Origin: a bacterium
GTDB lineage: Bacteria > Patescibacteriota > Minisyncoccia > Minisyncoccales > GBS-2
DNA length: 61,900 nt
Assembly (NCBI GenBank): GCA_036803205.1
Contig: DAIRUS010000003.1
Span: 1 to 61,900, forward strand
Direction: 5' to 3'
The position numbers and the translations under genes were made by a program. The notes below the pieces were generated by a model that saw only the letters and a program-made list of their open reading frames with translations, was not told where the DNA came from and did not search any database. Below are positions 3,799 through 60,407 of this stretch, piece by piece (position 1 is the stretch's first letter; each line of letters begins with the position of its first letter).

Positions 3799-3835
3799 AC
3801 TGCTACAAATTCTTTGCGATCGCAAAAAGAAAGTG
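3799..3835. repeat. upstream copy of a 37-bp direct repeat bracketing the PaaX/Cas2-like gene 1; contains the perfect 14-bp palindrome TTTGCGATCGCAAA (3813-3826)
   Basis: 27/37 identical to 4431-4467 in direct orientation. The palindrome overlaps a -35-like TTGCGA (3814-3819), which sits 17 nt upstream of TGaTAAAAT (3834-3842). Confidence 0.7.
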
Positions 3836-3848
3836 ATAAAATATTTTA

Positions 3849-4430
3849 ATGGGGATTAAAAAATATAAATATTATTTCTACAAACCAAAATCAGAAATAG
3901 TTAAAGATGTGTTATATTGGTTAGCCGTAACTGGGGCTGTTTATATTGCCGCCAGCTCTCCCTATTTTATTAGAAGTCTTTTAAAAAATATTAAAAAATT
4001 TAAAAAACACTCAAAAAGAAGGTTGGCCAATATCTTTTATAGATTAAAAAAAGAAGGGTTAATTGAAATAAAAAAAAGAGGTAAGCAATTTTACATAGGT
4101 TTAACCGAAGAAGGAAAGAAAAAGGCGGGAAGGTTTCAAATCGATGCCTTAAGAATAAAGAGGACCAAAAAATGGGATAGAAAATGGAGGCTGGTAATTT
4201 TTGATATTTCTGAGTTGAAAAAGTTTTTAAGAGAACTCTTTAGAGGAAAGTTAAAAGAATTGGGGTTTTATCAATTACAAAAAAGTGTCTGGGTTCATGC
4301 TTTTGATTGTGAGGCTGAAATTGAACTACTAAAAGAATTTTTTGGTTTATCAGAAAACGAATTGAAATTGGTGGTAGCTGAAAAAATAAGCAACGACGGC
4401 GTCCTAAAAGACTTTTTTAAAATAAAATAA
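3849..4430 (+). CDS. PaaX-like protein: hydrophobic N-terminal segment + winged-helix + Cas2-like (PaaX central) domain, paralog 1
   Basis: FYRLKKEGLIEIKKRGKQFYIGLTEEGKKK is wHTH-like. KKWDRKWRLVIFDI...LGFYQLQKSVWV matches the WDxxW-hydrophobic-strand and QxSVW pattern of the PaaX central / Cas2 ferredoxin fold. Roughly 55-60% identical by eye to ORF 57034-57606. Confidence 0.6.
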   Translation: MGIKKYKYYFYKPKSEIVKDVLYWLAVTGAVYIAASSPYFIRSLLKNIKKFKKHSKRRLANIFYRLKKEGLIEIKKRGKQFYIGLTEEGKKKAGRFQIDALRIKRTKKWDRKWRLVIFDISELKKFLRELFRGKLKELGFYQLQKSVWVHAFDCEAEIELLKEFFGLSENELKLVVAEKISNDGVLKDFFKIK

Positions 4431-4467
4431 ACTGCTGCGATATTTTTGCGACCGCTAAAAGAATGAG
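4431..4467. repeat. downstream copy of the 37-bp direct repeat bracketing gene 1 (core GCGACCGC)
   Basis: ACTGCTGCGATATTTTTGCGACCGCTAAAAGAATGAG versus ACTGCTACAAATTCTTTGCGATCGCAAAAAGAAAGTG. Confidence 0.6.
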
Positions 4468-4505
4468 GCTGTTTGAAAAGAAACAGATATTACATAAATG
4501 AAGTT

Positions 4506-16304: not shown

Positions 16305-16949
16305 ATGAATTATAATATTTCCTCTATGACAATTATCATTGGGTTAGGTAATCCCGGAAAAAAATTTCAAAAAACTCGCCATAATCTTGGCTTCCGGGTA
16401 ATTGATGTATTTGGGAAAAAAAATCAGTTTCCCAATTTTAGAATCTTAAAGAAATGTCTGGCCTTAATTTCCGAAAAGAAATTGAATAATGAAAAAATCC
16501 TCCTGGCAAAGCCCCAAACCTTTATGAATCTATCAGGAAAATCAGTGAAGCTTCTCATCCACCACTTTTTCCCCAAACCCCAAATACTCCAAATAAATGC
16601 CATGGCTGATATTTGGAGTATTGAAGAGAGAGTTTGGATAGTTCATGATGAAATCGATTTGCCTCTGGGAGAGATAAAGATCGTCAAAAATCGAGGAGCA
16701 GCTGGTCACAAAGGAGTTCAATCAATAATCGATGAATTGAAAACTAAAAACTTTGTAAGAATCCGAATTGGAATCAGACCAAAAAATCAAGAAACTGAAA
16801 AACAAAAAAACATTGAAAAGTTTGTTCTTCAAAAATTTGATAAAGAAGAGGAAAAAATTGTTAAAGAAGTAATAAAAAAAACTGCCCAAGCTCTTGAATT
16901 TACCTTAAAAAATGGTTTAGAAAAAGCAATGAGCGAATATAACAGATAA
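16305..16949 (+). CDS. pth: peptidyl-tRNA hydrolase carrying a 22-codon palindromic insertion (probable true start at 16326)
   Basis: IIGLGNPGKKFQKTRHNLGF, FMNLSGKSV, VHDEIDLPLG, GHKGVQSI. An extra segment, PKPQILQINAMADIWSIEERVW, lies between the FF and IVHDE blocks. Confidence 0.9.
   Translation: MNYNISSMTIIIGLGNPGKKFQKTRHNLGFRVIDVFGKKNQFPNFRILKKCLALISEKKLNNEKILLAKPQTFMNLSGKSVKLLIHHFFPKPQILQINAMADIWSIEERVWIVHDEIDLPLGEIKIVKNRGAAGHKGVQSIIDELKTKNFVRIRIGIRPKNQETEKQKNIEKFVLQKFDKEEEKIVKEVIKKTAQALEFTLKNGLEKAMSEYNR
16573..16637. repeat. third copy of the type-2 palindromic element, in frame inside pth
   Basis: The 23-mer ATACTCCAAATAAATGCCATGGC (16584-16606) is identical to 57628-57650, and TGGAGTATT (16614-16622) is also shared. 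Outer arms are CCAAAC/GTTTGG. Confidence 0.85.
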
Positions 16950-17436: not shown

Positions 17437-19458
17437 ATGGATTTGTCAAGGGTGAAGATTGACCAAGTTTTAATTTGTAGCCTCACTCCCTATTTTTTGG
17501 AAAAGGGGCTAGTTTGGTTTGAAAAAAATTTAAATAAAATTTTGGAGGCAAGAAAAACCCAATCTTTTTTTGAGGAAAATATAATTTTTTTAACTAAAGA
17601 CCAAATTTACAATTTTTCTCAATTTTTGAGGAAATTGGATGAAATGGGCTACGAAAAAGTCTTGACAGTTTCTGAACCGGGAGAATTTGCTCAAAGGGGA
17701 GGAATTATTGATGTCTTTCCGATAAATCTGAATTTTGCCGTCCGTTTTGAATTTTTGGGAAATAAAATTGAAAACATTGAAAAATTACCAATTGAGATTG
17801 AAGATGAAAAAGCGGCAAAAGAAATTTTAAAAAAGAAGTTAAAATCTCAAAAATTATTTTCTGATTTAAAAGGACTAAAACCAGGAGATTATTTGGTTCA
17901 TTTAGATCATGGTATTGGCAAATTCCTCTCATTTACTCAATTATATTGCGATCGCAATATAATTAAGTATTATGTTTTGGAATATGATAAAAATGATAGA
18001 CTCTATGTGCCAGTGGGGTTGGAACGAAAACTTTCAAGATATATTGGCTTTGTTGAGCCGAAACTCTCTAGACTAGGATCTTCTCTTTGGCAAAGAATAA
18101 AGAAAAAAGTTAAAGAAGAAGCTGAAAAATTAGCCAGAGAACTGCTGGAAATTTATGCTAAAAGAGAAATAGCTACTAGACCTCCTTATCTTCCAGAGGA
18201 CGAAATTGATTTTCAGCTTAAAGCCTCTTTTTCTTATACAGAAACGCCAGACCAAATTCAAACCCTTGAGGAATTAAAAAGGGATTTAGAAGGTTCAGAA
18301 CCAATGGACAGAATTGTCTGTGGTGATGTTGGTTTTGGCAAAACAGAAATTGCTTTAAGGGTAATGGTGAGAGTAGTAAAATCTGGCTATCAGGCAGCAA
18401 TGATTTGTCCGACGACCATTTTAGCTAATCAGCATTTTCAAAATTTTAAAGAAAGACTAAAGGATTTTCCAATCAAAATTGCAATGTTATCAAGGCTCCA
18501 GTCAAAAAAAGAACAAAAAGAAGTAATTGAAGGATTAAAAACTGGAAAAATTGATATTATTATTGGCACTCATCGTTTGTTGTCGAAAGATGTTGAAGAA
18601 TGTCTAGTTACCAACCTACCCCATTGTCCATTTTATGAGCCGGCACGAAAAGGATTAGGTCTTTTAGTTATTGATGATGAGCAAAGATTTGGAGTAAAGC
18701 AAAAAGAAAAATTGAAAAAAATGAGGGCTTCGCTTGATGTTCTTTCTCTTTCAGCCACCCCTATCCCCCGAACCCTCTATATGGCTTTGTCTTCCTTAAA
18801 AGATATTAGTTTAATTCAAACTCCACCTGTCGGTCGATTACCGGTAAAAACTTTTATTTTGCCATTTTCTGAAAAAATAATTAAAAAAGCAATTAAAAAT
18901 GAAATTTGTCGCGGCGGTCAAGTTTATTATCTTCATAATCGCGTCGAAACAATTGAAGCAACTAGAAAATTTTTAGAAAAACTAATACCCGAAGCAAAAT
19001 TTGAAATTGCTCATGGCCGGTTAAAAGAAAAAAGGTTAGTAAAAGTAATGGAAGATTTTCAGAAAAAAAAGATAGATGTTTTGGTTGCCACCACTATTAT
19101 TGAAAACGGTTTAGATTTGCCAAATGTCAATACCTTAATTGTTGCCGATGCCGCTCGTTTGGGTTTAGCTGAAGCCTATCAAGTTCGAGGAAGAATTGGT
19201 CGAAGTTATACCCAGGCCTTTGCCTATTTTTTGTACGGAAGCCATTTAACAGAAAAAGCTAAGTTGCGTTTAGATGCTCTAAAAGAGGCTGCAGAATTAG
19301 GTTCTGGTTATAAAATTGCTCTTAAAGATCTGGAAATTCGCGGCGCCGGTAATATCTTGGGGAAAGAACAATCGGGAAATATAAACCGAGTAGGGCTGAA
19401 CTTGTATTGCCAAATGCTAAACGAAGCGGTTGAAAAAATGAAAAGAAGGAACGCCTAA
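17437..19458 (+). CDS. mfd: transcription-repair coupling factor, minimal form (673 aa)
   Basis: CarD/RID-like GDYLVHLDHGIGKF...LYVPV. SF2 helicase motifs (GDVGFGKTE, DDEQRFG, SATPIPRT, QVRGRIGR). No UvrB-homology N-terminal module and no C-terminal D7. Confidence 0.85.
   Translation: MDLSRVKIDQVLICSLTPYFLEKGLVWFEKNLNKILEARKTQSFFEENIIFLTKDQIYNFSQFLRKLDEMGYEKVLTVSEPGEFAQRGGIIDVFPINLNFAVRFEFLGNKIENIEKLPIEIEDEKAAKEILKKKLKSQKLFSDLKGLKPGDYLVHLDHGIGKFLSFTQLYCDRNIIKYYVLEYDKNDRLYVPVGLERKLSRYIGFVEPKLSRLGSSLWQRIKKKVKEEAEKLARELLEIYAKREIATRPPYLPEDEIDFQLKASFSYTETPDQIQTLEELKRDLEGSEPMDRIVCGDVGFGKTEIALRVMVRVVKSGYQAAMICPTTILANQHFQNFKERLKDFPIKIAMLSRLQSKKEQKEVIEGLKTGKIDIIIGTHRLLSKDVEECLVTNLPHCPFYEPARKGLGLLVIDDEQRFGVKQKEKLKKMRASLDVLSLSATPIPRTLYMALSSLKDISLIQTPPVGRLPVKTFILPFSEKIIKKAIKNEICRGGQVYYLHNRVETIEATRKFLEKLIPEAKFEIAHGRLKEKRLVKVMEDFQKKKIDVLVATTIIENGLDLPNVNTLIVADAARLGLAEAYQVRGRIGRSYTQAFAYFLYGSHLTEKAKLRLDALKEAAELGSGYKIALKDLEIRGAGNILGKEQSGNINRVGLNLYCQMLNEAVEKMKRRNA
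17939..17964. repeat. perfect 26-bp palindrome AATTATATTGCGATCGCAATATAATT inside mfd
   Basis: Self-complementary over all 26 nt. Shares the 12-mer TTGCGATCGCAA with 3814-3825. Confidence 0.9.
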
Positions 19459-19535: not shown

Positions 19536-20402
19536 ATGGAGGATATAAAAGAAATTTCAATTAACGACGAGAAATATCCTAAGCTTTTAAAAAAAATTAA
19601 AGACGGACCGAAAGTTCTCTATTATCGGGGAGAAATAAAAAATGAAGAAAATTGTTTTGCCATTGTGGGAACCAGACGGTGTTCAGATTATGGAAAGCAG
19701 GTGGCCTTGGAAATTGCCGGAGATTTAGCCGAGGCAGGATTAACAATTGTTTCCGGCCTGGCGCCAGGAATTGATACCTTTGCCCATCGGGCAACGGTTG
19801 AAAAAGGAAGAAGGACAATCGCCGTTTTAGGCACCGGAGTTGATGAAAAATCAATTTATCCCAAATCTAACCTAAAATTGGCAAGAAAAATTTTAGAAAT
19901 CGGTGGTTGTCTTATTTCTGAATATCCAGCAGGAACTCGCGGGACCCAATTTACCTTTCCTCAAAGAAATCGAATAATCTCTGGACTTTCTTTGGGAGTT
20001 TTAGTGGTTGAGGCGAAAGAAAAATCAGGAGCTTTAATTACGGCCAATTATGCATTTCAACAAAAAAGAAAAGTTTTTGCTGTACCTGGCTCAATTTATT
20101 CTTCCAATTCTAAGGGCCCCCATCTTTTAATTAAAAGCGGTGCCAAATTAGTTGAAAATGCCAACGACATCCTCAAGGAACTAAATCTTCCCCTTAAGAA
20201 GGTTAGTTTCTTTTGTGAAGGAGAAACAGAAGAAGAAATCTTTGTGTTAAATGCTTTAAGAGAGGGGGGATTAGATATTGATAAAATCATTGAGAAAACA
20301 AAATTATCAGCGGCTAAAGTAGTCAGCACTCTTGCCATTTTAGAAATAAAAGGTAAGGTAAAAAACTTAGGAGGAAATATTTATGCCCTTAGTCATAGTT
20401 GA
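19536..20402 (+). CDS. dprA: DNA processing protein DprA/Smf
   Basis: Rossmann-like domain with SGLAPGIDTFAHRATV and a C-terminal winged-helix-like tail. Confidence 0.85.
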   Translation: MEDIKEISINDEKYPKLLKKIKDGPKVLYYRGEIKNEENCFAIVGTRRCSDYGKQVALEIAGDLAEAGLTIVSGLAPGIDTFAHRATVEKGRRTIAVLGTGVDEKSIYPKSNLKLARKILEIGGCLISEYPAGTRGTQFTFPQRNRIISGLSLGVLVVEAKEKSGALITANYAFQQKRKVFAVPGSIYSSNSKGPHLLIKSGAKLVENANDILKELNLPLKKVSFFCEGETEEEIFVLNALREGGLDIDKIIEKTKLSAAKVVSTLAILEIKGKVKNLGGNIYALSHS

Positions 20403-22500
20403 AAGTCCGACAAAAGGAAATACTATTAAAAAATTTTTAGGTCCTCAATACAAGGTTCTTGCTTCTTACGGGCATATTAGGGATTTACCGGAAGATGAGT
20501 TTGGAATAGATGTTGAAAAAAATTTTAAGCCAAAATACATTATTATTCCAAAAGCCAAAAAAATTGTTCAGTTTCTGAAAAAAGAGGCAGAAAAAGCCAA
20601 CTTAATTATAATTTCGACCGACCCCGATAGAGAAGGAGAAGCTATTGCTTACCACTTAATTCATCTTCTAAATCTAAACGGAGAAAAACCATATCAAAGA
20701 ATTGTTTTTCATGAAATTACCAAATCGGCAATCGAGGAAGCGTTTAAAAAGCCGAGAAAGATTGACCTAAATTTAGTTGATGCTCAGCAAGCCAGAAGAA
20801 TTTTAGATAGAATTGTTGGCTATAAATTAAGCCCATTTCTCTGGAAAAAAGTAGCCAGAGGTTTATCAGCCGGAAGAGTGCAATCAGTAGCGGTGAGGTT
20901 AGTGGTGGAAAGAGAAAGGGAAATTCAAAATTTTGTTCCCCAAGAATATTGGACCATAACAGCCCAACTCAAAAAATTAGAGAACAAAACTCAGCAAGTT
21001 TTACAGGGGTCGGACCTCTGTCAATCGGACCTCTGTCAATCGGACCTCTGTCAATCGGACCTCTGTCAATTTGACGCTCTTTTGGTCAAAAAAGATGAAA
21101 AAATGATTCCCAAATTGGGAATTAAGACAAAGGAAGAGGCAGAAAAAATTATTAAAGAATTAAAAGATGCTGAATATAAAGTAGCAAATATTGAGAAAAA
21201 AGAGGTCAAAAGAAATCCCCTACCGCCATTTGTTACTTCCACTTTGCAACAGGCGGCCTGGCAGAGGTTTAAATGGCCAGCAAAATTGACAATGCAAATT
21301 AGCCAGCAACTTTATGAGACAGGATATATTACCTATCATCGTAGCGATTCTTTAAATGTTTCAGAATTGGCTTTAGCAATGGCTAAAAGATTTATTGTTA
21401 AAAATTACGGTCAAAATTATTATCAATTTCGAAAATATAAAACAAGGGCAAAAGTAGCCCAAGAAGCCCATGAAGCTATTAGACCAACCTATCCGGAAAA
21501 TATTCCAGAAAAAATTTCCAGAAAATTAGAAAAAAGCCAATTAAAGCTTTATGAACTCATTTGGAAAAGATTTATCGCCTGTCAAATGGCTCAAGCAATT
21601 TTTGAGTCAACAATTGTTGATATTTCAGCCAAAAATTATATTTTTCGGGCTAACGGACAAGTTTTGAAATTTGATGGATTTTTAAAGGTTTATCCAATTA
21701 AATATGAAGAGGTTGAATTGCCTTCTTTAAAAATAAATGAAATTTTAGAATTAATAAACCTCGTTCCTTCCCAACATTTCACCCAACCCCCTCCCAGATA
21801 TACCGAAGCAACTCTAATTAAAGCCTTAGAAGAAAATGGCATCGGTCGACCATCAACCTATGCACCAATATTATCGACAATTCAGGAAAGAAACTACATT
21901 GAAAAAGATGAGAACAAAAAATTTCGACCAACTGAAATCGGATTAGTGGTTAATGATTTGTTGGTCAATCACTTTTCGGAAATTGTTGATATTGGTTTTA
22001 CTGCCAAGATGGAAGAGAATTTAGATAAAATTGCTTTGGGAGAAAAAAAATGGCTACCAGTAATAAAAGAGTTTTATCAATCTTTCGATGAGAATTTAAA
22101 AAAGAAATATCAAGAAATTTCAAAAAAGAGTTTAATTGAAAAAACAGAAAAAATTTGTCCCCAATGTCAAGCTCATCTTTTAATTCGTTTAGGTAAATTT
22201 GGAAAATTCTACGCCTGTTCTAAATTTCCAAAATGTAAATACACTGAATCTTTAGAGGAAAACGATTTGGGTCCCAAATGTCCAAAATGTGGACAGGGAA
22301 AGATAGTGAAAAAAAGAACTAAAAAAAGGAAAATATTTTATGCCTGTAATCGGTTCCCGAAATGTAATTTTGCCTTATGGGAAAAACCAACAGGAGAAAT
22401 TTGCCCGAAATGCCAATCCCTCTTAGTGGAAACCAAAAGAAAGCAGATAAAATGTTCAAATCAAGAATGTGATTACAAATGGATAAATTCCTCAACCTAA
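20383..22500 (+). CDS. topA: DNA topoisomerase I
   Basis: Toprim (VESPTK, DPDREGE). YITYHRSDS active-site Tyr region. Three C-terminal CxxC...CxxxxC zinc ribbons. Confidence 0.9.
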   Translation: MPLVIVESPTKGNTIKKFLGPQYKVLASYGHIRDLPEDEFGIDVEKNFKPKYIIIPKAKKIVQFLKKEAEKANLIIISTDPDREGEAIAYHLIHLLNLNGEKPYQRIVFHEITKSAIEEAFKKPRKIDLNLVDAQQARRILDRIVGYKLSPFLWKKVARGLSAGRVQSVAVRLVVEREREIQNFVPQEYWTITAQLKKLENKTQQVLQGSDLCQSDLCQSDLCQSDLCQFDALLVKKDEKMIPKLGIKTKEEAEKIIKELKDAEYKVANIEKKEVKRNPLPPFVTSTLQQAAWQRFKWPAKLTMQISQQLYETGYITYHRSDSLNVSELALAMAKRFIVKNYGQNYYQFRKYKTRAKVAQEAHEAIRPTYPENIPEKISRKLEKSQLKLYELIWKRFIACQMAQAIFESTIVDISAKNYIFRANGQVLKFDGFLKVYPIKYEEVELPSLKINEILELINLVPSQHFTQPPPRYTEATLIKALEENGIGRPSTYAPILSTIQERNYIEKDENKKFRPTEIGLVVNDLLVNHFSEIVDIGFTAKMEENLDKIALGEKKWLPVIKEFYQSFDENLKKKYQEISKKSLIEKTEKICPQCQAHLLIRLGKFGKFYACSKFPKCKYTESLEENDLGPKCPKCGQGKIVKKRTKKRKIFYACNRFPKCNFALWEKPTGEICPKCQSLLVETKRKQIKCSNQECDYKWINSST
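21010..21069. repeat. perfect 15-bp x4 tandem repeat (TCGGACCTCTGTCAA) in topA, encoding (SDLCQ)x4
   Basis: Direct reading; four identical units, in frame. Confidence 0.95.
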
Positions 22501-40226: not shown

Positions 40227-40355
40227 AATCTTTTCTTTTTTCTAAAATCTTCTTAGAGAAAAGCTGATTTCCAAACTTCCAAACAAAACTCTTCAATCTC
40301 CATTATTAACACAACTGTAATAAAAAAAGCCATGGCAATCTTATTACAGGAGATT

Positions 40356-53323: not shown

Positions 53324-56300
53324 TTAAATTTTCTTTATCGCTAAGTGTAAAGTTTGACCTTCAATTTTTATTTCTTTTTCCAGATCAAAAACAATTTTTT
53401 CTTTTTCCGAATAAAAATCTTTTATCTTTGCCTGAAGAGCAATGAGTTTCTGATTTTTAAGTAAAATTTCAGCCAAACTTCCCTCTGTGGAATATCTTAC
53501 CATAATTTTATCTTTTGGTCTAAATCCGGCCTCTTTTCTCATTGATTGAATGTAGCGAATAACTTCTCGCAAAATCCCTTCTTCTTTCAGTTCGGAAGTA
53601 ATTTTTGTATCCAATTCTATTTCTTTTTTAATTCTTCCATCAAAAACTATTTCTTTTACATTCACTTCCTCTTTTAATAATTTTAATAATTTATCATCAA
53701 ACCTAAGCTTTAAATCTTTTATTTTTAGCCTTGAAAGGGGCTGCCTCACTTTTATTTTTGCATTTGACCTTTCAGCTAAAACTAAAGTTGCCATTTCCCT
53801 GATTTTTTCCATTTTCTTTTCCAAATTCTTATCAATCAACTCTTTGTTTGCTTTTGACCAGTCAACTAAATGGATGGAGGTTGGTAGTCGAAAGTTAAAA
53901 CTCAAAAGTTTTTGATAAATGAATTCGCTTAAAAATGGGATAAATGGAGCGGATAATTTGCTGATGGTCAAAAGGACAAATCCTAAAGTTTGAGAAACTA
54001 TTTCAAGTTCTTTTTTTGTTTCTGGTTTTTGAAACCTTTCCCTTGACCTCCTAATATACCAAAGAGAAAGCTCATCAGCAACAAATTTTTCAATTAATCT
54101 TGCCCCTTTAGTTATATCGTAGTTGTCTAAACTTTCAGTAACATCTTGAATTAAAGTATTTAGTTTCGAAATAATCCATTTGTCTAAAACATTTTCCCCT
54201 CTCAGAGGATAAGACTTTCTTATTATTCTCCTAAAATTGGAAGTGGTCTTAGCATAGGTTTGGAAAAATAAAAAGCAATTCCAAAAAATGATTATGAATT
54301 TCCTTAAACTTTCTTCAATATCTTTTTCCGAAAATAGTTTTGCCTCGCCTGGTTGATTAATAGTGTAAAAATACCATCTGACAGCATCGACTCCGTATTT
54401 TTCAATAATATACCAGGGGTCAACTACGTTACCTTTTGACTTAGACATTTTTTCTCCCTTTTCATCTAAAACATGACCCAAAGAAATAACATTTTTGTAA
54501 CTCGGACCAAAGTCCAAAAGAGTAGAAATTGCCAATAGAGTATAAAACCAACCCCGGGTTTGGTCTATTCCTTCGGAGATATAGTCAGCGGGAAATAATA
54601 TTTTTTTAATTAACTTTCGATAGTTTTGGATTTTAAGCTCGAGGTTTTTGGTTTTAAAACAAGAAAGTGGGAAATGGGCTTGGGCAAAAGGCATTGCTCC
54701 AGAGTCAAACCAACAATCAACCACTTCTGAGACTCTTGCCATTAAATTGCCGCACTTTGGACAATAAAATCTTACCTCATCAATATACGGCCGATGAAAA
54801 TCTAATTCTCCTTTCTCATTCATTGGTAAAAATTTAAATTCTAATCTTCTTAACTCGCCATTTTTAATAATGCCCTTTTTCTTTTTTTCCGCAACTAATT
54901 CTTTTTTTGTTTGTCCCTTCAAGGCTCCTGCCAACAGCCAGAAAGGATCACCATGACCAACAATTAAGATTTTTTTATCCTGATATTTTTTATCAATTTC
55001 TTTTAAAAATTCAGTCATTCTCATTTGGCAATGAAGCCAACTTTCTCCTTTTGGTAACTTTTTTTCAAAGCGCTCTTCAGAAATTGGAAAATCCCGAAAA
55101 TATTCTTCTTTTGGTCGACCATGGTAAATGCCCAAATTAATATCTCTTAATCTTCTGTCGAAATTGACTTTTAATTTCAACTCTTTGGCTATAATTTCAG
55201 CAGTTTGTTTTGTCCGGAAAAAATCGGAAGAATAAATCAAATCAATCCCTAATTTTTTCAATTTCGGAATCACTCTTTTTATTTGCTCAACTCCCTCTTC
55301 TGTTAAACCAATGGGTTCTTTTTCTGGAAAAGGATAGGTCAGGTCTTTTTTTCTTGTTTGATAAATTGTTTGGCCATGTCTTAAGAAAAAATATTGATTG
55401 GTCGAAAATTTTTGAGAAAGTAAATCTCTTTTTCCGCCAATGACTTCTAAGTATTGGCAACTTTGGCATTGCCAAATTGGCAAAGGTGTCCCCCAATACC
55501 TTTCTCTCGATAGGGCCCAATCTTTTATTTCTTTTAACCATTCACCAAATCTCCCTTCTTTTAAATGTCCTGGAATCCAATTGATTTTTTGATTATTTTT
55601 GATTAAGTTTTCCTTCAGGGCGGTCATTCTAATAAACCAACTTTTTTTAGCATAATAAAGAAGGTGGCTGCGGCATCTCCAGCAAAAAGGATAATCGTGT
55701 TCGTACAATTCTTCCTTAAAAAGCAAGTTTCTCTCTTTGAGGTCTTCAATAATTAGTGGATCAGCTTTTTTGACGAAAAGTCCGGCCCATTTTTTGATAT
55801 CAAGCCTAAACCTTCCTTCTTCATCAACTGTTAACAAAATTGGAAACTCCGGCCTATTCTCCAATCGGTAATTTTCATTTACCAATTTTATTAATGCCAA
55901 GTCTTCCTCTCCAAAAGCCGGGGCAATATGAACCAAGCCTGTCCCCTCTTCCAATGAAACAAAATCAGCCGGAAGAGTTTTGTAAATTGTTATTCCCACC
56001 CGGGATTCAACCGGATAAAGAGGTTGATAGTAAAGATTAACCAAATCTTTTCCTTGAAACTCTTTTACAATTTCTCCTTGAATACCTGTAGCTTCAATCC
56101 GCTCTTTAGCCAGAATTAAAAACTCCTGGCCAATTTTTAATTTGGCATAAACGAAATTTTCATTTAGAGCAATGGCTACATTTCCTGGTAAAGTCCAAGG
56201 GGTGGTTGTCCAAACTAAAAGAGAGGTGTTTTTGAATTCCGGATTTAAAATGGGAAATTTAACATAGATTGAAGGCTCCTTTATTTTTTCGTAACCCAAA

Positions 56301-56866
56301 GCTAGCTCGTGACTAGAAAGAGAGGTTTGACACCGCGGACAATAAGGAACAACTTTAAAATCTTGATATAACAGTCCTTTTTGCCAAATGGTTTTTAAAA
56401 TCCACCAGACGCTTTCAATGTATTCAGGGGTATAAGTAATATAGGGGTCTTTCATGTCTAGCCAAAAACCAATCCTTTCGGTCAATTTCTCCCAATCTTT
56501 TTTGTATTGCCAGACAGATTTTTTACATTCTTCGTTGAATTTGGCAATGCCATATTTTTCTATCTCTCTTTTTGATTTCAATCCTAATTTTTTTTCAATT
56601 TCCAATTCAACCGGCAAGCCGTGAGTATCCCAACCCGCCCTTCTTAAAACTCTAAATCCTTGCATCGTTTTGTAGCGACAAATAATATCTTTAAAAACCC
56701 GACTCAAAACATGATGGATTCCCGGCTTGGCATTAGCCGTCGGTGGCCCCTCATAAAAAACAAAATCAATTTTCTTTTTTCTTCTTTTGATGCTATTTTC
56801 AAAAATTCTATTTTTCTTCCAAAACCTAAGTACTTTTTCCTCTAATTTTGGAAAGTTTATCTCCAT
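53324..56866 (-). CDS. ileS: isoleucyl-tRNA synthetase with an internal histidine-phosphatase-like domain
   Basis: PPTANAKPGIHHV (HIGH-like), CP1 editing region, WGTPLPIW, KMSKSKGN, anticodon-binding domain. 1180 aa, including an insert of about 196 aa (FLRHGQT...VGHGD). Confidence 0.9.
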   Translation of the reverse strand: MEINFPKLEEKVLRFWKKNRIFENSIKRRKKKIDFVFYEGPPTANAKPGIHHVLSRVFKDIICRYKTMQGFRVLRRAGWDTHGLPVELEIEKKLGLKSKREIEKYGIAKFNEECKKSVWQYKKDWEKLTERIGFWLDMKDPYITYTPEYIESVWWILKTIWQKGLLYQDFKVVPYCPRCQTSLSSHELALGYEKIKEPSIYVKFPILNPEFKNTSLLVWTTTPWTLPGNVAIALNENFVYAKLKIGQEFLILAKERIEATGIQGEIVKEFQGKDLVNLYYQPLYPVESRVGITIYKTLPADFVSLEEGTGLVHIAPAFGEEDLALIKLVNENYRLENRPEFPILLTVDEEGRFRLDIKKWAGLFVKKADPLIIEDLKERNLLFKEELYEHDYPFCWRCRSHLLYYAKKSWFIRMTALKENLIKNNQKINWIPGHLKEGRFGEWLKEIKDWALSRERYWGTPLPIWQCQSCQYLEVIGGKRDLLSQKFSTNQYFFLRHGQTIYQTRKKDLTYPFPEKEPIGLTEEGVEQIKRVIPKLKKLGIDLIYSSDFFRTKQTAEIIAKELKLKVNFDRRLRDINLGIYHGRPKEEYFRDFPISEERFEKKLPKGESWLHCQMRMTEFLKEIDKKYQDKKILIVGHGDPFWLLAGALKGQTKKELVAEKKKKGIIKNGELRRLEFKFLPMNEKGELDFHRPYIDEVRFYCPKCGNLMARVSEVVDCWFDSGAMPFAQAHFPLSCFKTKNLELKIQNYRKLIKKILFPADYISEGIDQTRGWFYTLLAISTLLDFGPSYKNVISLGHVLDEKGEKMSKSKGNVVDPWYIIEKYGVDAVRWYFYTINQPGEAKLFSEKDIEESLRKFIIIFWNCFLFFQTYAKTTSNFRRIIRKSYPLRGENVLDKWIISKLNTLIQDVTESLDNYDITKGARLIEKFVADELSLWYIRRSRERFQKPETKKELEIVSQTLGFVLLTISKLSAPFIPFLSEFIYQKLLSFNFRLPTSIHLVDWSKANKELIDKNLEKKMEKIREMATLVLAERSNAKIKVRQPLSRLKIKDLKLRFDDKLLKLLKEEVNVKEIVFDGRIKKEIELDTKITSELKEEGILREVIRYIQSMRKEAGFRPKDKIMVRYSTEGSLAEILLKNQKLIALQAKIKDFYSEKEKIVFDLEKEIKIEGQTLHLAIKKI

Positions 56867-56957
56867 ATATTTTTAGAATATCATTTTAACTAAATTTAAG
56901 CAAAATAGAAAAGTCTTCACCTTAATCAAAAATTCAATACCAAACTTCTTCCTCCTC

Positions 56958-57009
56958 GACACCCCTCAAATACTCCATTTAATTGCCATGGCATTTATTT
57001 GGAGTATAA
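56958..57009. repeat. left arm of a perfect 52-bp inverted repeat (type-2 palindromic element)
   Basis: The reverse complement equals 57626-57677 at 52/52 positions. Internal quasi-palindrome ATACTCCA-N6-TGCCATGGCA-N6-TGGAGTAT. Contains TTGCCA (56983-56988), a 16-nt spacer, then TATAAT (57005-57010). Confidence 0.95.
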
Positions 57010-57033
57010 TAAATATGGAGAAAGGTGGATTTT

Positions 57034-57606
57034 ATGAGTAAATATAAATATTATTTTAAAAAACCTAGGTCTGAAATTGTGAAAGATATTTTGAGTTGGT
57101 TAATGATTGGTGGGGCGGTTTATATTGCCGCTTCTTCCCCTTATTTTATTCACAATTTATTAAAAGCTTTTAAAAGAGGAAGACTATATCCTGAAAAGAA
57201 AGTTTATAATACATTTTATAAACTTCGAAAACAAGGGTGCATTAAAATTGAAAAAAAAGGAAAACAAATCTATATCTCTTTAACCGAAGAAGGAAAAAGA
57301 AAGGTTGGTTGGCTTCAAATAGATAGTTTGAAAATAAAAAAACCAAAAAAATGGGATAGAAAGTGGAGGATGGTTATTTTTGATATTTCTCAATTGAAAA
57401 AAATTTATCGAGAGGCTTTAAGGGGAAAATTGAAGGAGCTTGGCTTTTATCCTTTTCAAAAAAGTGTTTGGGTCTATCCTTATCCTTGTCAAGATGAAAT
57501 CGCTCTCCTTAGAGATTTTTTTGGTTTAACCTATAAAGAACTTTGTCTTATTACTGCTGAAAATATAGAGAAGGCGGATTTTTTACATAAAATTTTTAAA
57601 CTTTAA
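57034..57606 (+). CDS. PaaX-like protein: hydrophobic N-terminal segment + winged-helix + Cas2-like domain, paralog 2
   Basis: Same architecture as 3849-4430 (KKWDRKWRMVIFDI...LGFYPFQKSVWV). ATG at 57034 preceded by GGAGAAAGGTGG. The track start at GTG 57025 is also possible. Confidence 0.6.
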   Translation: MSKYKYYFKKPRSEIVKDILSWLMIGGAVYIAASSPYFIHNLLKAFKRGRLYPEKKVYNTFYKLRKQGCIKIEKKGKQIYISLTEEGKRKVGWLQIDSLKIKKPKKWDRKWRMVIFDISQLKKIYREALRGKLKELGFYPFQKSVWVYPYPCQDEIALLRDFFGLTYKELCLITAENIEKADFLHKIFKL

Positions 57607-57625
57607 ACTTTCAACTTATACTCAC

Positions 57626-57677
57626 TTATACTCCAAATAAATGCCATGGCAATTAAATGGAGTATTTGAGGGGTGTC
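57626..57677. repeat. right arm of the perfect 52-bp inverted repeat
   Basis: TTATACTCCAAATAAATGCCATGGCAATTAAATGGAGTATTTGAGGGGTGTC. Starts 19 nt after the stop codon. Confidence 0.95.
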
Positions 57678-57817
57678 AATTTTGAAAAGTTATTTTTTCT
57701 TAGAGAAAACTTTTCTAAAAAATTAAGGATGCCTTTTAGAATAATTCAAAAATAGTAAAATTATCCTTCTAACTTCTTTATGATTTTTTTATTGGCAACA
57801 TCTTTTGATTTTACTTT

Positions 57818-59434
57818 TCACATCCTTTCTGGCGCGGAAATTCCTATTAGAGAAAGAGTCTTTTTTAATACAATTTTAGTGGCTAAAATTAAAGACAGTC
57901 TTGCTTCCATTAAATCCTTATTTTCTGAAATCACTTTACAATCTCGATAAAATTGGTGAAAATTTTTAGCTAAATCAAGAAGGTATTGGGGAATCCTCTG
58001 TAATTGATAATCTTTAGCGCTATCTTCAATAATTTCCGGAAATCGAATAAGTTGTTTAATAAGGGTTAGTTCGCTGGGATGATTTAATAATTTCAAATTT
58101 TTAACTCTCGTTTTCCCTTTTGCGCTTTCCATCTTGGATTTTTTAGATTTTTTAAAGATGCTACATATTCTAGCGTGGGCATATTGAACATAATAAATTG
58201 GATTTTTCTCTGACTGTTCTTTTGCCAATTCTAAATCAAATTCCATTTGGGCATTGAGAGACTTTGTCAAATAAAAGAACCTAGCTACATCTAATCCTAC
58301 TTCATCAATCAATTCTTCCAAAGTAACTATTTCTCCTTTTCTCTTTGAAATCTTTCCCTTTTTTAATCTTACCAGCTGGCAGATTAAGATGTTTAAATCT
58401 CCCTTGTAGTTAAGAATTTTTGCTATTGCTTTAATTTTTGGCACGTGACCCTGATGATCTGCCCCCCAGATATTAATAATTTTTTTAAAACCCCTATCAA
58501 ATTTATCTTTATGATAAGCAATATCAGATAAAAAATAGGTTGGCTCGCCGTTTTGTCTAACAACGACCTCATCTTTTGGCGCGCCAAATTCTGAAATTTT
58601 TAACCATTCTGCCTCTTCTTTCTCATAAATTAAACCTTTCTTTTTTAACCAATGATAAATTTTTTTAATTTTATTTTTTTGATACAAATCTTCTTCCGAA
58701 ATCCAACTATCAAATTTAATCCGCAGTTTATTTTTAATAAAATTTTTAATATCTTTTTGAACCTCTTGAGCCAATAAATAACCTGCTTTCCCCGGGTTAG
58801 AAATTTTCTCCAGTTTTTCTTTGAGTTTCGTTATCCGGGATTTAAGATAATCATTTAAATAAACGACTCCTTTCCCTAAAGCAGTTTGACCCAAGGTTTT
58901 AATCTGAGTGTTCACTTTGGCATCATTAATATAATATTCACGGACTGTCTTATATCCCGCCCACTCCAAAACATTGGCTAAGGTATCGCCAAAAAATGCT
59001 CCTCGACCATTGCCAATATGAAGGGGACCAGTGGGATTAGCGGAAATAAATTCAACCTGGATTTTTCGATTTCTACCAATTTTTAATCTGCCAAATTTCT
59101 TCCCTTGTTTTAGAATCTCTCCAACCTGTTTTTGTAAATATTCCTTTGAAAGAAAAAAATTAATAAATCCTGGTTTAGCCACTTCAATTTTCTCAAAGAA
59201 CCTTTCGGTTTTTAAGTTTTTTAATTCTTCTACCACCCGATAAGCTATGTCCATCGGATTTTTTTTTATCTCCTTAGTAATTGTCATAGCGATATTAGTC
59301 GCATAATCTCCATGAATTTTCTCTTCTGAATGCTCAACCTGAATTTCCGGCATCTCAACTCCAGGCAAAACCCTTTCTTTTTGAAGCTTTTGTACTGATT
59401 TTTCAATTAAATTTTTAATCTTTTGACAAATCAT
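57818..59434 (-). CDS. argS: arginyl-tRNA synthetase
   Basis: SANPTGPLHIGNGR (HIGH). C-terminal DALR anticodon-binding domain ending ...GISAPERM. Confidence 0.9.
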   Translation of the reverse strand: MICQKIKNLIEKSVQKLQKERVLPGVEMPEIQVEHSEEKIHGDYATNIAMTITKEIKKNPMDIAYRVVEELKNLKTERFFEKIEVAKPGFINFFLSKEYLQKQVGEILKQGKKFGRLKIGRNRKIQVEFISANPTGPLHIGNGRGAFFGDTLANVLEWAGYKTVREYYINDAKVNTQIKTLGQTALGKGVVYLNDYLKSRITKLKEKLEKISNPGKAGYLLAQEVQKDIKNFIKNKLRIKFDSWISEEDLYQKNKIKKIYHWLKKKGLIYEKEEAEWLKISEFGAPKDEVVVRQNGEPTYFLSDIAYHKDKFDRGFKKIINIWGADHQGHVPKIKAIAKILNYKGDLNILICQLVRLKKGKISKRKGEIVTLEELIDEVGLDVARFFYLTKSLNAQMEFDLELAKEQSEKNPIYYVQYAHARICSIFKKSKKSKMESAKGKTRVKNLKLLNHPSELTLIKQLIRFPEIIEDSAKDYQLQRIPQYLLDLAKNFHQFYRDCKVISENKDLMEARLSLILATKIVLKKTLSLIGISAPERM

Positions 59435-59532: not shown

Positions 59533-59982
59533 GTGAAAATAATTTCTGAAAATAAAAAGGCTTATTTTAATTATCAAATCGAGGAAATGCTTGAGGCGGG
59601 AATTGTTCTGATTGGTCAGGAGGTAAAATCTTTAAAAACAAGAGGGGTAAATTTGGCAGGCTCTTATGTCGTTTTAAAGGGCGAAGAAGTTTTTTGGGTC
59701 GGAGCTAAAATTGCTCCTTATCAACCAAAAAATGCACCATCGAATTATAATCCCGAAAGAACAAGAAAGCTTTTATTGAAAAAATCAGAGATTAAATATC
59801 TCATCGGCAAATCAAAGCAAAAGGGCTTGACTTTAATTCCTTTAAGAGTATATACTAAAAGAGGGAAAATAAAGCTGGAGTTTGGAATAGCCAGAGGGAA
59901 AAGAAGGGTAGACAAAAGAGAGTTAATTAAAAAAAGAGAAATAGAGAGGGAAATTCAAAGAGCATTAAAACAAAAACTCTGA
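59533..59982 (+). CDS. smpB: SsrA-binding protein
   Basis: NKKAYFNYQIEE, GIVLIGQEVKSL, LLLKKSEI. GTG start. Immediately upstream of tmRNA. Confidence 0.9.
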   Translation: MKIISENKKAYFNYQIEEMLEAGIVLIGQEVKSLKTRGVNLAGSYVVLKGEEVFWVGAKIAPYQPKNAPSNYNPERTRKLLLKKSEIKYLIGKSKQKGLTLIPLRVYTKRGKIKLEFGIARGKRRVDKRELIKKREIEREIQRALKQKL

Positions 59983-60043: not shown

Positions 60044-60402
60044 GGGGATGATTGGAATCGATGAAGAGTTGACTAAAATAGGCAAACCGAGTATTCTCAA
60101 ATCTCGTTAAGCTTTGAGAAAAAGAATAAGTGCCAACTTATTCAGAGAACCAGCATTAGCCTACGCTTAATGGCTGATGCCATCGAGGTTGGTGACTCTC
60201 GCTAACCGACCACGGTGTTATAACCAGCGAGATAAATAGTTCTTTTGAAAATCCAAAAAGAACTATTAAGAGTTCTTAGGATTTAAGTATAGAAATTTTT
60301 GTCCAATTTTTAATTCTATACCTATTGACTAAATTGGACTAAGCTTGTAGAACTATTTTAGAAAAACTCTTCAGACGTGGGTTCAATCCCCGCCATCTCC
60401 AC
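60044..60402 (+). ncRNA. ssrA: tmRNA
   Basis: 5' GGGGATG pairs with 3' CATCTCC, including a G3-U pair. T-arm GTGGGTTCAATCCCCGC. Tag reading frame 60132-60170 encodes ANLFREPALAYA then a stop. Confidence 0.85.
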
Positions 60403-60407
60403 TAAAT

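Follow-up and report, generated by a model that had tools for sequence, protein, structure and literature searches.

A PaaX/Cas2-like gene between matching operator-like palindromes in a Patescibacteriota bacterium and its probable role as an autoregulated repressor

We analyzed a window of 61,900 nucleotides, that is, the whole stretch from position 1 to 61,900 of contig DAIRUS010000003.1 (assembly GCA_036803205.1), from a bacterium of the Patescibacteriota lineage GBS-2. Between the minus-strand genes ileS and argS lies a single plus-strand open reading frame, here called mini-PaaX, enclosed by an inverted repeat; the open reading frames agree with the original prediction in making it the lone plus-strand gene there. 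The features of the locus, together with a third cognate site inside pth, are as follows.

53324–56866, minus strand: ileS.
56958–57009, no strand assigned: left arm of the inverted repeat, comprising the outer tail GACACCCCTCAA and the upstream operator-like palindrome; a like architecture lies upstream of relatives.
56970–57007: upstream operator-like palindrome, dyad at 56988/56989.
56983–57010, plus strand: predicted sigma-70-type promoter inside the upstream palindrome.
57034–57606, plus strand: mini-PaaX gene, 190 aa (193 aa from GTG 57025), with a PaaX_M/Cas2-like domain.
57626–57677, no strand assigned: right arm of the inverted repeat, comprising the downstream operator-like palindrome and the outer tail TTGAGGGGTGTC; the downstream sites of relatives touch the stop codon.
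57628–57665: downstream operator-like palindrome, dyad at 57646/57647.
57818–59434, minus strand: argS.
16584–16628, plus strand: third cognate site, a 45-nt in-frame insertion in pth that encodes QILQINAMADIWSIE.

The two arms are 100% complementary over 52 nt and enclose 616 nt with one open reading frame, exactly as had been described. Either arm is a 38-nt near-palindrome, ATACTCCA-N6-TGCCATGGCA-N6-TGGAGTAT, in which 16 of the 19 pairs match, extended on its outer side by a one-sided tail of 12 nt that falls within the perfect repeat here; the earlier view of the arms as quasi-palindromes with a one-sided tail was thus correct. The number of matches expected in shuffled sequence is 0 for either pattern. 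The gene had been described as a 193-aa frame with gaps of 24 nt to the left arm and 19 nt to the right arm. Both spacings stand (left arm to ATG 57034, stop at 57606 to right arm), whereas the length does not, as the conserved start MSKYKYYF lies at this ATG and gives 190 aa. The downstream palindrome adjoins the stop codon. The flanks of the repeat differ (CCTCCTC and AATTTTG), and, in line with the prediction, there is no target-site duplication.

The upstream palindrome also carries a predicted promoter: TTGCCA (56983–56988), a 16-nt spacer and TATAAT (57005–57010) agree with the sigma-70 consensus at 11 of 12 positions. The predicted −35 is the left half of the palindrome core, and the −10 adjoins the right arm of the palindrome. 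Among close family members, 42% of the upstream sites have a −10 hexamer matching at 5 or more of 6 positions, at equal spacing and directed toward the gene (4% in the opposite direction, and 4–6% when downstream sites are scored), and the enrichment of T at −6 and −5 is limited to the upstream sites. This upstream-only placement agrees with the earlier reading of a promoter in the left arm aimed at the gene. An antisense promoter in the right arm had been proposed as well. The mirrored minus-strand copy, TATAAG, is present, but it is not a conserved feature; because promoter-like hexamers are rare at the downstream sites of relatives (0–6%), the antisense promoter here seems to be a side effect of the repeat being perfect.

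What kind of protein is encoded here? A profile search affirmed the proposed PaaX/Cas2-like identity, with Pfam PF20803 (PaaX_M) matching the 190-aa protein at 4.5e-19 and 68.8 bits (cutoff 24). An N-terminal KYKYYF motif and hydrophobic helix are followed by a winged helix-turn-helix and a Cas2-like beta-alpha-beta-beta-alpha-beta domain, after which the protein stops, the C-terminal domain of PaaX being absent. The PaaX equivalog model TIGR02277 gave 44.3 bits against a cutoff of 264.55 and covered profile positions 33–134 of 279, and the Cas2 model TIGR01573 gave 13.9 bits, under its cutoff of 24.5. The structure model contains the winged helix and the beta-alpha-beta-beta-alpha-beta fold, with the N-terminal hydrophobic helix modelled at low confidence. 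Foldseek ranked E. coli PaaX (8a39) and Rv0674 highest; many Cas2 structures (3exc, 2ivy and 5zyf among them) and VapD came next, all of these matches being weak (E at least 1.9e-3, none at or below 0.001); PaaX was likewise the best PDB match by sequence, again weak (E 0.025). FD, with its acidic residue of the Cas2 type, is invariant across 111 members, and so are several other positions.

The family is large, with more than 2000 relatives found, most of them unnamed or annotated as hypothetical or PaaX, and its proteins are under strong purifying selection (60–75% identity over many lineages). A second paralogue in the window (PaaX_M 3.8e-18) lies between a DUF6938 gene and comEC. The mini-PaaX protein contained no transposase, integrase or recombinase domain, with PaaX_M and weak winged-helix matches only. 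A phage origin was rejected, as the family profile found no relative in viral contigs and PHROGs gave only weak "transcriptional regulator" matches. Membership in a defence system was also rejected, as the PADLOC matches were all weak: Cas2 (E 1e-3 to 4e-5, ~35 residues only), CARF-wHTH and LmuC. Tandem Repeats Finder showed no array-like repeat in the window that could be a CRISPR array, and no Cas1 domain occurred among the annotated window genes or the listed neighbours of family loci. These neighbours are ileS, argS, murB, comEC, rpoD and M16 peptidases, with no paa genes nearby. An association with translation genes does not generalize, since other groups adjoin comEC/DUF6938, murB, rpoD or M16 peptidases. 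Our search of the literature on PaaX, Cas2-like proteins, CPR and palindromes found no description of the family or its architecture.

Among ~110 relatives, a matching palindrome of 32–48 bp was present on both sides of the gene in ~80 of the 100 loci with both flanks readable. The palindromes agree within a locus and differ from locus to locus and from genome to genome; many are perfect, spacer included, and the downstream ones begin at, or overlap, the stop codon. The two copies align best in direct orientation in 38 loci and in inverted orientation in 20, with 22 loci showing no preference, so inverted terminal repeats are not constant across the family. The arrangement is a family rule in many candidate-phyla-radiation bacteria, not a local accident, whereas the 52/52 identity of the arms is specific to the window's lineage. 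There are several paralogues per genome, and the paralogue groups, the ileS-, rpoD-, M16- and comEC-linked ones among them, retain their neighbours over deep divergence. The two sites lie 619–755 bp apart with no 10–11 bp periodicity, and the phasing of a DNA loop was rejected on this ground.

Could the arms act at the RNA level, either as hairpins or as a 52-bp double-stranded clamp for RNase III, in the gene's own mRNA or in argS–ileS read-through? The arms are perfectly complementary, relatives have argS and ileS side by side on one strand, and minus-strand read-through from argS to ileS would carry both arms. However, because the predicted promoter lies within the left arm, most of this arm should be missing from the mRNA of the gene itself, and in relatives the two sites are direct as often as they are inverted. 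The pairing profile points away from RNA as well. Pairing is ~100% at core positions 1–4 (of which 1–3 pair by selection of sites), 86–96% at arm positions 10–16 and 42–70% at spacer positions 5–9; that is, the symmetry peaks at the dyad, where a hairpin would have its loop, and is lowest in the adjacent stem. Mismatches of the G:T and A:C kinds are about equally frequent (34:29 and 29:21), with no strand-specific G:U bias. No T-run is present at the arms, which argues against a terminator, and Rfam returned nothing at the arms, either at gathering scores over the whole window or at E up to 1 over 56700–57900. Symmetry of this kind is to be expected where a protein binds duplex DNA, and not in a hairpin. 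The clamp of the original prediction is not supported, and we consider any RNA-level element very improbable.

Co-variation between protein and DNA points in the same direction. Residue 63, in the predicted recognition helix, co-varies with arm position −14 (K with C, N with T); this is the top pair by mutual information (0.84 bits), with a z of 10.7 compared with 4.0 for the runner-up. Residue 120, two past the invariant Asp of the Cas2-like domain, co-varies with core position −2, Q or H going with CCATGG and E or D with CGATCG, CTATAG, CGGCCG or CGTACG. This second rule is concordant at 57 of 60 tips, and the tree implies 11 or more changes; both rules hold for both paralogues of the window. 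The central tetranucleotide is identical between partner sites and differs among loci. Since the symmetry is confined to core and arms, G:U bias is absent and two co-variations are seen, the protein most likely has the palindromes as its own sites on double-stranded DNA.

The third cognate site lies within the coding sequence of pth. Its palindrome (16584–16621) is a copy of the 38-mer with 1 mismatch, with ATACTCCA arms and a GCCATGGC core. In this one case, then, the pth site has the arms of a paralogue resident in the window, an agreement for which the odds by chance are about 3 in 65 arm types. The insertion has a conserved position in the same pth loop of several genomes, and across lineages the site occurs in two reading frames, the second-frame case being L122. 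The pth insert "PWQ" of L117, considered as the same core in another frame, proved to be a different, GC-rich insert. GC skew near pth, examined for a replication origin, follows the coding strand only. The solitary pth copy had been taken as a sign of selfish spread, a view that its conserved position in one loop does not bear out.

Is the site–gene–site unit mobile? In a selfish or mobile cassette, the wHTH–Cas2-like protein would cut or pair the palindromes at the dyad, as a site-specific nuclease or recombination factor, leading to inversion, excision, insertion or gene conversion of the unit, with solo sites such as that in pth as footprints or targets. The mini-PaaX gene is indeed inverted, relative to the conserved smpB–argS…ileS flanks, when compared with L051 and L099, an inversion between lineages. 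The argS–ileS junction is empty and palindrome-free in the four closest ArgS relatives (L118–L121), and L031, L041 and L022 carry a family gene between two M16 peptidase genes at a junction that is unoccupied in the window. A cassette of this kind would also accord with the multiple paralogues per genome, with the perfect 50–52 nt repeats in both orientations (inverted in the window, direct in L061), with the central tetranucleotide that, like a crossover region, is shared by partners and variable among loci, and with the position of the invariant Cas2-type Asp beside the residue that tracks the core.

On the other hand, there is neither a target-site duplication nor a transposase or integrase domain, viral contigs have no match, the two sites have no constant relative orientation, the paralogue groups keep their neighbours and the proteins are under strong purifying selection. 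A scan of 1.18 Mb found 78 palindromes of such architecture beside family genes and only 7 solo, 3 of them in pth. No locus contained an extra copy of another locus's own palindrome, and no solo site lay beside another locus's cassette. REP- or MITE-like spread was rejected, as two scans for solo copies were negative and no dispersed identical copies turned up. Quasi-palindrome template switching can make palindromes perfect with no dedicated enzyme required. Furthermore, loss is as possible as gain as the source of the presence/absence polymorphism at orthologous sites, and the neighbour-joining protein tree, which bears on whether the argS–ileS site was occupied once or twice, was poorly resolved. 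REP/RAYT units and Rickettsia palindromic elements offer a likeness, in that a single gene is flanked by palindromes and a palindrome is inserted in frame in a coding gene. Unlike these elements, the family has no HUH/Y1 transposase and no hundreds of dispersed copies, and its in-frame insertion is limited to one position-conserved loop of pth. The invertible or mobile cassette of the original prediction is thus weakly supported, by the inversion and the empty junctions, and is weakened by the lack of dispersal, target-site duplication, recombinase and viral copies; a selfish nuclease or recombination factor seems to us rather unlikely.

A bolder form of this reading, which we regard as unlikely too and a shade more so, starts from the Cas2-like domain. 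In it, the domain would do more than hold a dimer together: it would be a sequence-reading, possibly DNA-cutting module sitting on the dyad of a CRISPR-repeat-sized palindrome, within a Cas2-related selfish or self-rearranging cassette; the unit would invert, convert and occasionally relocate through its own palindromes. Mini-PaaX shares with Cas2 and VapD the beta-alpha-beta-beta-alpha-beta fold and an acidic residue ending beta1 (FDI), and it has weak Cas2 profile matches and a Q-x-SVW that resembles the Q-x-SVF motif of Cas2. The Cas2 dimer of Cas1–Cas2 complexes occupies the middle of the DNA duplex. Unlike Cas2, mini-PaaX scores below the Cas2 cutoff, is fused to a winged helix and has no CRISPR array in the window, and its loop beside the Asp appears to read specific central bases. 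If this were true, such a cassette would be related to the side of CRISPR adaptation that recognises repeats, but free-living, and the in-frame pth footprint would be explained.

Could the palindromes instead be anchoring sites with no transcriptional role? The protein would then label a small number of places on the chromosome and so serve its organisation or segregation, much as a centromere or Noc does, possibly tethered to the membrane by its N-terminal hydrophobic helix, and the site at its own promoter would be incidental. The number of putative high-affinity sites per genome is small, some lie within coding regions, the N-terminal hydrophobic segment resembles a signal or membrane-anchor sequence, and there is a weak similarity to AspA, a centromere-binding winged-helix protein (E 0.08–0.2). 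However, that similarity is not significant, it is the upstream site in particular that contains the promoter, and each paralogue has its sites at its own gene, not all in one chromosomal region. We therefore hold anchoring to be distinctly unlikely.

The original prediction had left three interpretations side by side, and the comparative data support the autoregulated PaaX/Cas2-like repressor with two-sided operators, the mobile unit faring weakly and the dsRNA clamp poorly. To judge from the sequence comparisons, mini-PaaX is probably an autoregulated repressor with operators on both sides of its gene. By analogy with Cas2 and PaaX, the protein is probably dimeric, with the Cas2-like domains as the dimer core. 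The dimer would bind a tripartite palindrome of ~38 bp, the outer arms (about −16 to −13 from the dyad) being read by two winged helices and the central GC-NNNN-GC core by the beta1-alpha1 loops of the Cas2-like pair, beside the invariant Asp. Because the upstream site overlaps the promoter, whose −35 falls within the core and whose −10 falls at the edge of the arm, the bound protein should exclude RNA polymerase at its own promoter. The post-stop site would, at a guess, strengthen repression by looping or serve as a roadblock or insulator toward neighbouring genes, and the pth site could be an intragenic roadblock or an auxiliary site. The identity of the arms most likely arose by recent homogenisation, or by gene inversion between two near-palindromic sites.

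In Lrp/AsnC-type regulators, a helix-turn-helix is joined to a RAM domain, a small ferredoxin-like oligomerising domain, and autoregulation occurs at palindromic sites; this is a design analogy only, as no sequence relationship was detected. The phenylacetyl-CoA-responsive repressor PaaX (PDB 8a39 from E. coli, 3l09 from Jannaschia, 3kfw for M. tuberculosis Rv0674) shares the winged helix and the Cas2-like central domain. E. coli PaaX recognises the 39-bp operator TGATTC-N27-GAATCA and is a repressor of its own promoter too (PMC9493321), which compares with the predicted long-span operator (~38–39 bp) and the promoter overlap here. Unlike PaaX, mini-PaaX has 190 aa instead of ~300, lacks the C-terminal effector-binding domain and the neighbouring paa genes, and has the extra N-terminal KYKYYF motif and hydrophobic helix. 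Its putative operator has a conserved central core besides the arms and stands once on each side of the gene, and there are several paralogues, with predicted differences in specificity.

Several points count against the repressor. The N-terminal hydrophobic helix, a low-confidence part of the model, has no explanation in it, and a pure DNA-binding scaffold need not require the invariant Cas2-type acid and other residues. For the spacer-through palindromes and the tail in the repeat, a further mechanism has to be assumed, for instance template switching, gene conversion or recombination; the presence of the cassette at the argS–ileS junction is polymorphic; and a 45-nt in-frame operator within an essential gene is not expected for a simple repressor. 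Nor is there helical phasing between the two sites.

If the operator reading is right, it would give a concrete function to a very widespread family of the candidate phyla radiation. It would also provide a simple recognition code, in which a recognition-helix residue corresponds to an arm base and the residue two past the Asp to the central tetranucleotide. A Cas2-like domain would then read specific DNA at the center of a palindrome, which would bear on how PaaX works and on the role of Cas2-like folds outside CRISPR. A putative regulator site kept in frame within the essential pth gene, in two reading frames across lineages, is unusual, and it may help in the study of gene regulation in organisms that are not yet available in pure culture.

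The repeat finder returned two arms of 52 nt each, at 56958–57009 and 57626–57677, which are 616 nt apart and 100% complementary (52/52), so the perfect inverted repeat described in the original prediction stands, as does the single ORF inside it. Each arm contains a 38-nt near-palindrome, ATACTCCA-N6-TGCCATGGCA-N6-TGGAGTAT, with a one-sided tail, GACACCCCTCAA, on its outer side; neither pattern had any match in shuffled sequence. The enclosed ORF (57025/57034–57606), the only one between the arms, had been read as 193 aa. The proteins in a 40-sequence alignment of relatives share the start MSKYKYYF, which places the true initiation codon at the ATG of 57034 and makes the product 190 aa long.

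The predicted PaaX/Cas2-like domain was recovered as a Pfam match to PaaX_M ("PaaX central Cas2-like domain") at 4.5e-19, with weak matches to winged-helix families at residues 52–93. The PaaX equivalog model scored 44 bits versus the 264 required, and the Cas2 model likewise scored under its cutoff. An AlphaFold2 model built from the 40-sequence alignment, confident from residue 60 on, showed a winged helix followed by a beta-alpha-beta-beta-alpha-beta fold; in Foldseek it matched E. coli PaaX (8a39) and Rv0674 best, with many Cas2 structures and VapD behind them, every match being weak (E of at least 1.9e-3). Residues 1–60, modeled with low confidence, hold the KYKYYF motif, which is invariant, and a hydrophobic helix. 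Compared with PaaX, the gene product is truncated, as the C-terminal effector domain is absent. The search for relatives gave 2018 matches (the best at 65–75% identity), all from Patescibacteria/CPR and mostly without a name; no family members were found in viral contigs.

Is the bracketed arrangement a property of the family? We examined 123 loci, which together contain ~110 different genes of the family, one of them a second paralogue in the window; for each gene, a script searched up to 130 nt from either end for the best palindrome. The great majority of the genes had a 30–48 nt palindrome on both sides, and the upstream and downstream copies were clearly similar in 80 of the 100 loci with both flanks available. 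The two copies are alike within a locus; between loci, the arms differ and sometimes the core does as well. The common plan combines arms that vary, AT-rich spacers and, in the middle, a GC-NNNN-GC core, most frequently GCCATGGC, with GCGATCGC/ACGATCGT, GCTATAGC, ACGGCCGT, GCATATGC, CACGTG and GCGTACGC as the other cores. Across the family, the direct orientation of the copies matched better in 38 loci and the inverted one in 20, with 22 ties, and a 50/50 direct repeat is present at one locus (L061). The perfect inverted arrangement is thus not conserved across the family. The second paralogue, which lies between a DUF6938 gene and comEC, as it also does in two related loci (L045, L093), has direct copies:

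3849–4430, strand opposite to its neighbours: second family paralogue, 60% identity, PaaX_M 3.8e-18
about 3801–3838 and 4433–4470, direct orientation: its flanking sites, both with ACTGCT...TTTGCGA(T/C)CGC.AAAAGAA

Do the palindromes act as RNA or as DNA? Counted from the dyad, pairing was ~100% at positions 1–4, a figure that follows in part from our site selection, which demanded the central three pairs, 42–70% at positions 5–9 and 86–96% at positions 10–16; the core motif is itself conserved, and this does not depend on the rule. The numbers of G:T and A:C mismatches were nearly equal (34:29 upstream, 29:21 downstream), leaving no strand-specific RNA signal, and the sites matched no Rfam family. 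Consequently, the proposal that the arms form a 52-bp dsRNA clamp is unsupported, as the pairing is not hairpin-like either. Judged from sequence, the palindromes are most likely protein sites on double-stranded DNA rather than hairpins.

Furthermore, the sites co-vary with the protein. In the arms, the base at −14 follows residue 63 (ATG numbering) of FY[K/N/R]L, the predicted recognition helix: K occurs with C and N with T. No other tested pair scored higher (MI 0.84 bits; z 10.7, the next residue reaching 4.0). In the core, the base at −2 follows residue 120, located two residues past the invariant Asp (FDIx[Q/E...]): Q/H goes with CCATGG, E/D with CGATCG, CTATAG, CGGCCG or CGTACG, I/M with CATATG and N with CACGTG, a rule with which 57 of 60 close-family members were concordant. 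Parsimony on a neighbour-joining tree gave at least 11 residue-class and at least 13 base-class changes, rough numbers given the weak resolution of the tree; that several switches took place is nevertheless clear. Residues 183 and 187, the other ones with high MI, serve as an internal control, since the downstream palindrome physically overlaps their codons at the C-terminal end. Both rules hold for the paralogues of the window: the first combines K63 and Q120 with CTCC in the arms and GCCATGGC in the core, the second R63 and E120 with GCGA(T/C)CGC cores. These correlations suggest an apparent recognition code that would involve the Cas2-like domain.

The placement of the sites is likewise informative. 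The promoter predicted in the left arm (TTGCCA, a 16-nt spacer and TATAAT at 56983–57010) is present and matches the sigma-70 consensus at 11 of 12 positions. At upstream sites of the family, the −35 (TTGCCA) comes from the left core half and TATAAT often adjoins the right arm; only these sites are enriched for T at −6 and −5. By strict thresholds (≥5/6 match, spacing 16–18 nt), 42% of close-family upstream sites had a gene-facing −10, compared with 4% pointing the opposite way and 4–6% at downstream sites. Since such promoters are rare at downstream sites, the promoter-like copy predicted in the right arm and aimed into the gene, which does exist as a near-promoter, is probably a by-product of the perfect repeat and no feature of the family. 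Downstream sites start at or overlap the stop codon (median stop-to-dyad distance ~20 nt). The site bound by E. coli PaaX is TGATTC-N27-GAATCA (39 bp), and the protein represses the promoter of its gene by keeping RNA polymerase off (PMC9493321). The placement is that of a putative autorepressed promoter with a second candidate operator at the 3′ end. With promoters in the upstream sites and site–protein co-variation, an autoregulated repressor with operators on both sides, one of the original proposals, is the best-supported mechanism.

Could the site-gene-site unit instead be mobile, with the protein as a nuclease or recombination factor? Some comparisons speak for it: in two related loci (L051, L099), argS, the gene and ileS share one strand, and the window has the same order with the gene inverted and smpB-argS and ileS unchanged. 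In the four closest ArgS relatives (68–71% identity), the argS-ileS gap is 47–86 nt and holds neither gene nor palindrome, and the M16 peptidase genes of the window are adjacent and overlapping where L031, L041 and L022 hold a family gene. On the other hand, we found no target-site duplication in the sequence flanking the arms, in agreement with the original prediction, and neither a recombinase nor dispersal; paralogue groups keep their context (11 ileS-linked, 10 murB-linked, 4 rpoD-linked and 3 comEC-linked loci). The proposed mobile cassette holds only as evolutionary rearrangement, and a nuclease or recombination role of the protein has a low probability. Our conclusion is that the unit passes on mainly by vertical descent and is now and then lost, gained or inverted, for which the near-palindromic flanks are obvious substrates. 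The 52/52 identity, which includes the 12-nt tail, and the many fully perfect palindromes at other loci point to recurrent homogenisation. Quasi-palindrome template switching and gene conversion are established mechanisms, and the protein may play an active part.

The neighbourhood is translation-related (tmRNA, smpB, infC-rpmI-rplT, argS, ileS) and conserved in L118–L121; the tmRNA (60044–60404, 138.7 bits) adjoins smpB (59533–59982). In ileS (53324–56866, minus strand), a histidine-phosphatase insert at residues 493–656 (His_Phos_1, 3.3e-33) splits the halves of the catalytic domain; it also occurs in L118–L120, and the L121 phosphatase is a separate gene. The topoisomerase I gene (20383–22500) has a perfect 15-nt tandem repeat, TCGGACCTCTGTCAA, of 4.1 copies at 21010–21070 and no intein; related genomes have inteins in nrdD (L115, 672–4016) and, with a LAGLIDADG domain, in topA (L117, 7441–11241).

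Sites also occur away from family genes:

16584–16621, inside the pth ORF: third copy of the 38-mer, one mismatch
17935–17968, inside the mfd ORF: palindrome ACTCAATTATATTGCGATCGCAATATAATTAAGT, 16/17 paired, GCGATCGC core
40316–40350, intergenic, between two convergent genes: solo site CTGTAATAA-AAAAA-GCCATGGC-AATC-TTATTACAG

A census of 1.18 Mb gave 78 high-quality palindromes beside family genes, only 7 elsewhere and 0 after shuffling. The seven comprise three in pth, in loci picked for containing pth (the window's case being independent of that choice), one in the window mfd and three apparently unrelated. Relative to solved structures, the window Pth has a 15-residue insertion, QILQINAMADIWSIE (nt 16584–16628, the palindrome plus 7 nt). 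Of 34 CPR homologues, ~13 carry an insert with an A-M-A core (GCC ATG GCx) at this same loop, ~13 have none and the others have different inserts. At the DNA level, five of six pth loci carry a GCCATGGC-core palindrome of family architecture with differing arms (ATACTCCA, CGTAATAC, CGTATTAA, CAACTTAAC and GCGTCAAAT). In one of these genes (L122) the identical core is translated in a different frame (AGC CAT GGC, S-H-G), which indicates that the nucleotide palindrome is conserved rather than the peptide. The window pth arms equal those beside the first paralogue, an arm type present in only 3 of 65 loci. In L117, pth has a different GC-rich insert in the same loop (2945–2990, …GCCAGTCGCCTAGGCTCCAGGCCTTGGCAGGC…), without the GCCATGGC palindrome. 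The mfd palindrome, read as LYCDRNII, does not lengthen the protein and is absent from mfd of L115–L117 and L122; its core and −14 base fit the second paralogue. The intergenic site has a GCCATGGC core and an arm type known beside family genes in L046 and L092, and it could serve as operator for a paralogue encoded beyond the window, or be a remnant.

We found no description of this CPR PaaX/Cas2-like family or its bracketed architecture in the searchable literature. Relative to known systems, the family stands as a new form of the PaaX type, truncated and widely expanded in CPR, in which putative twin operators would bracket each gene and a probable cognate site is kept in-frame within the essential pth.
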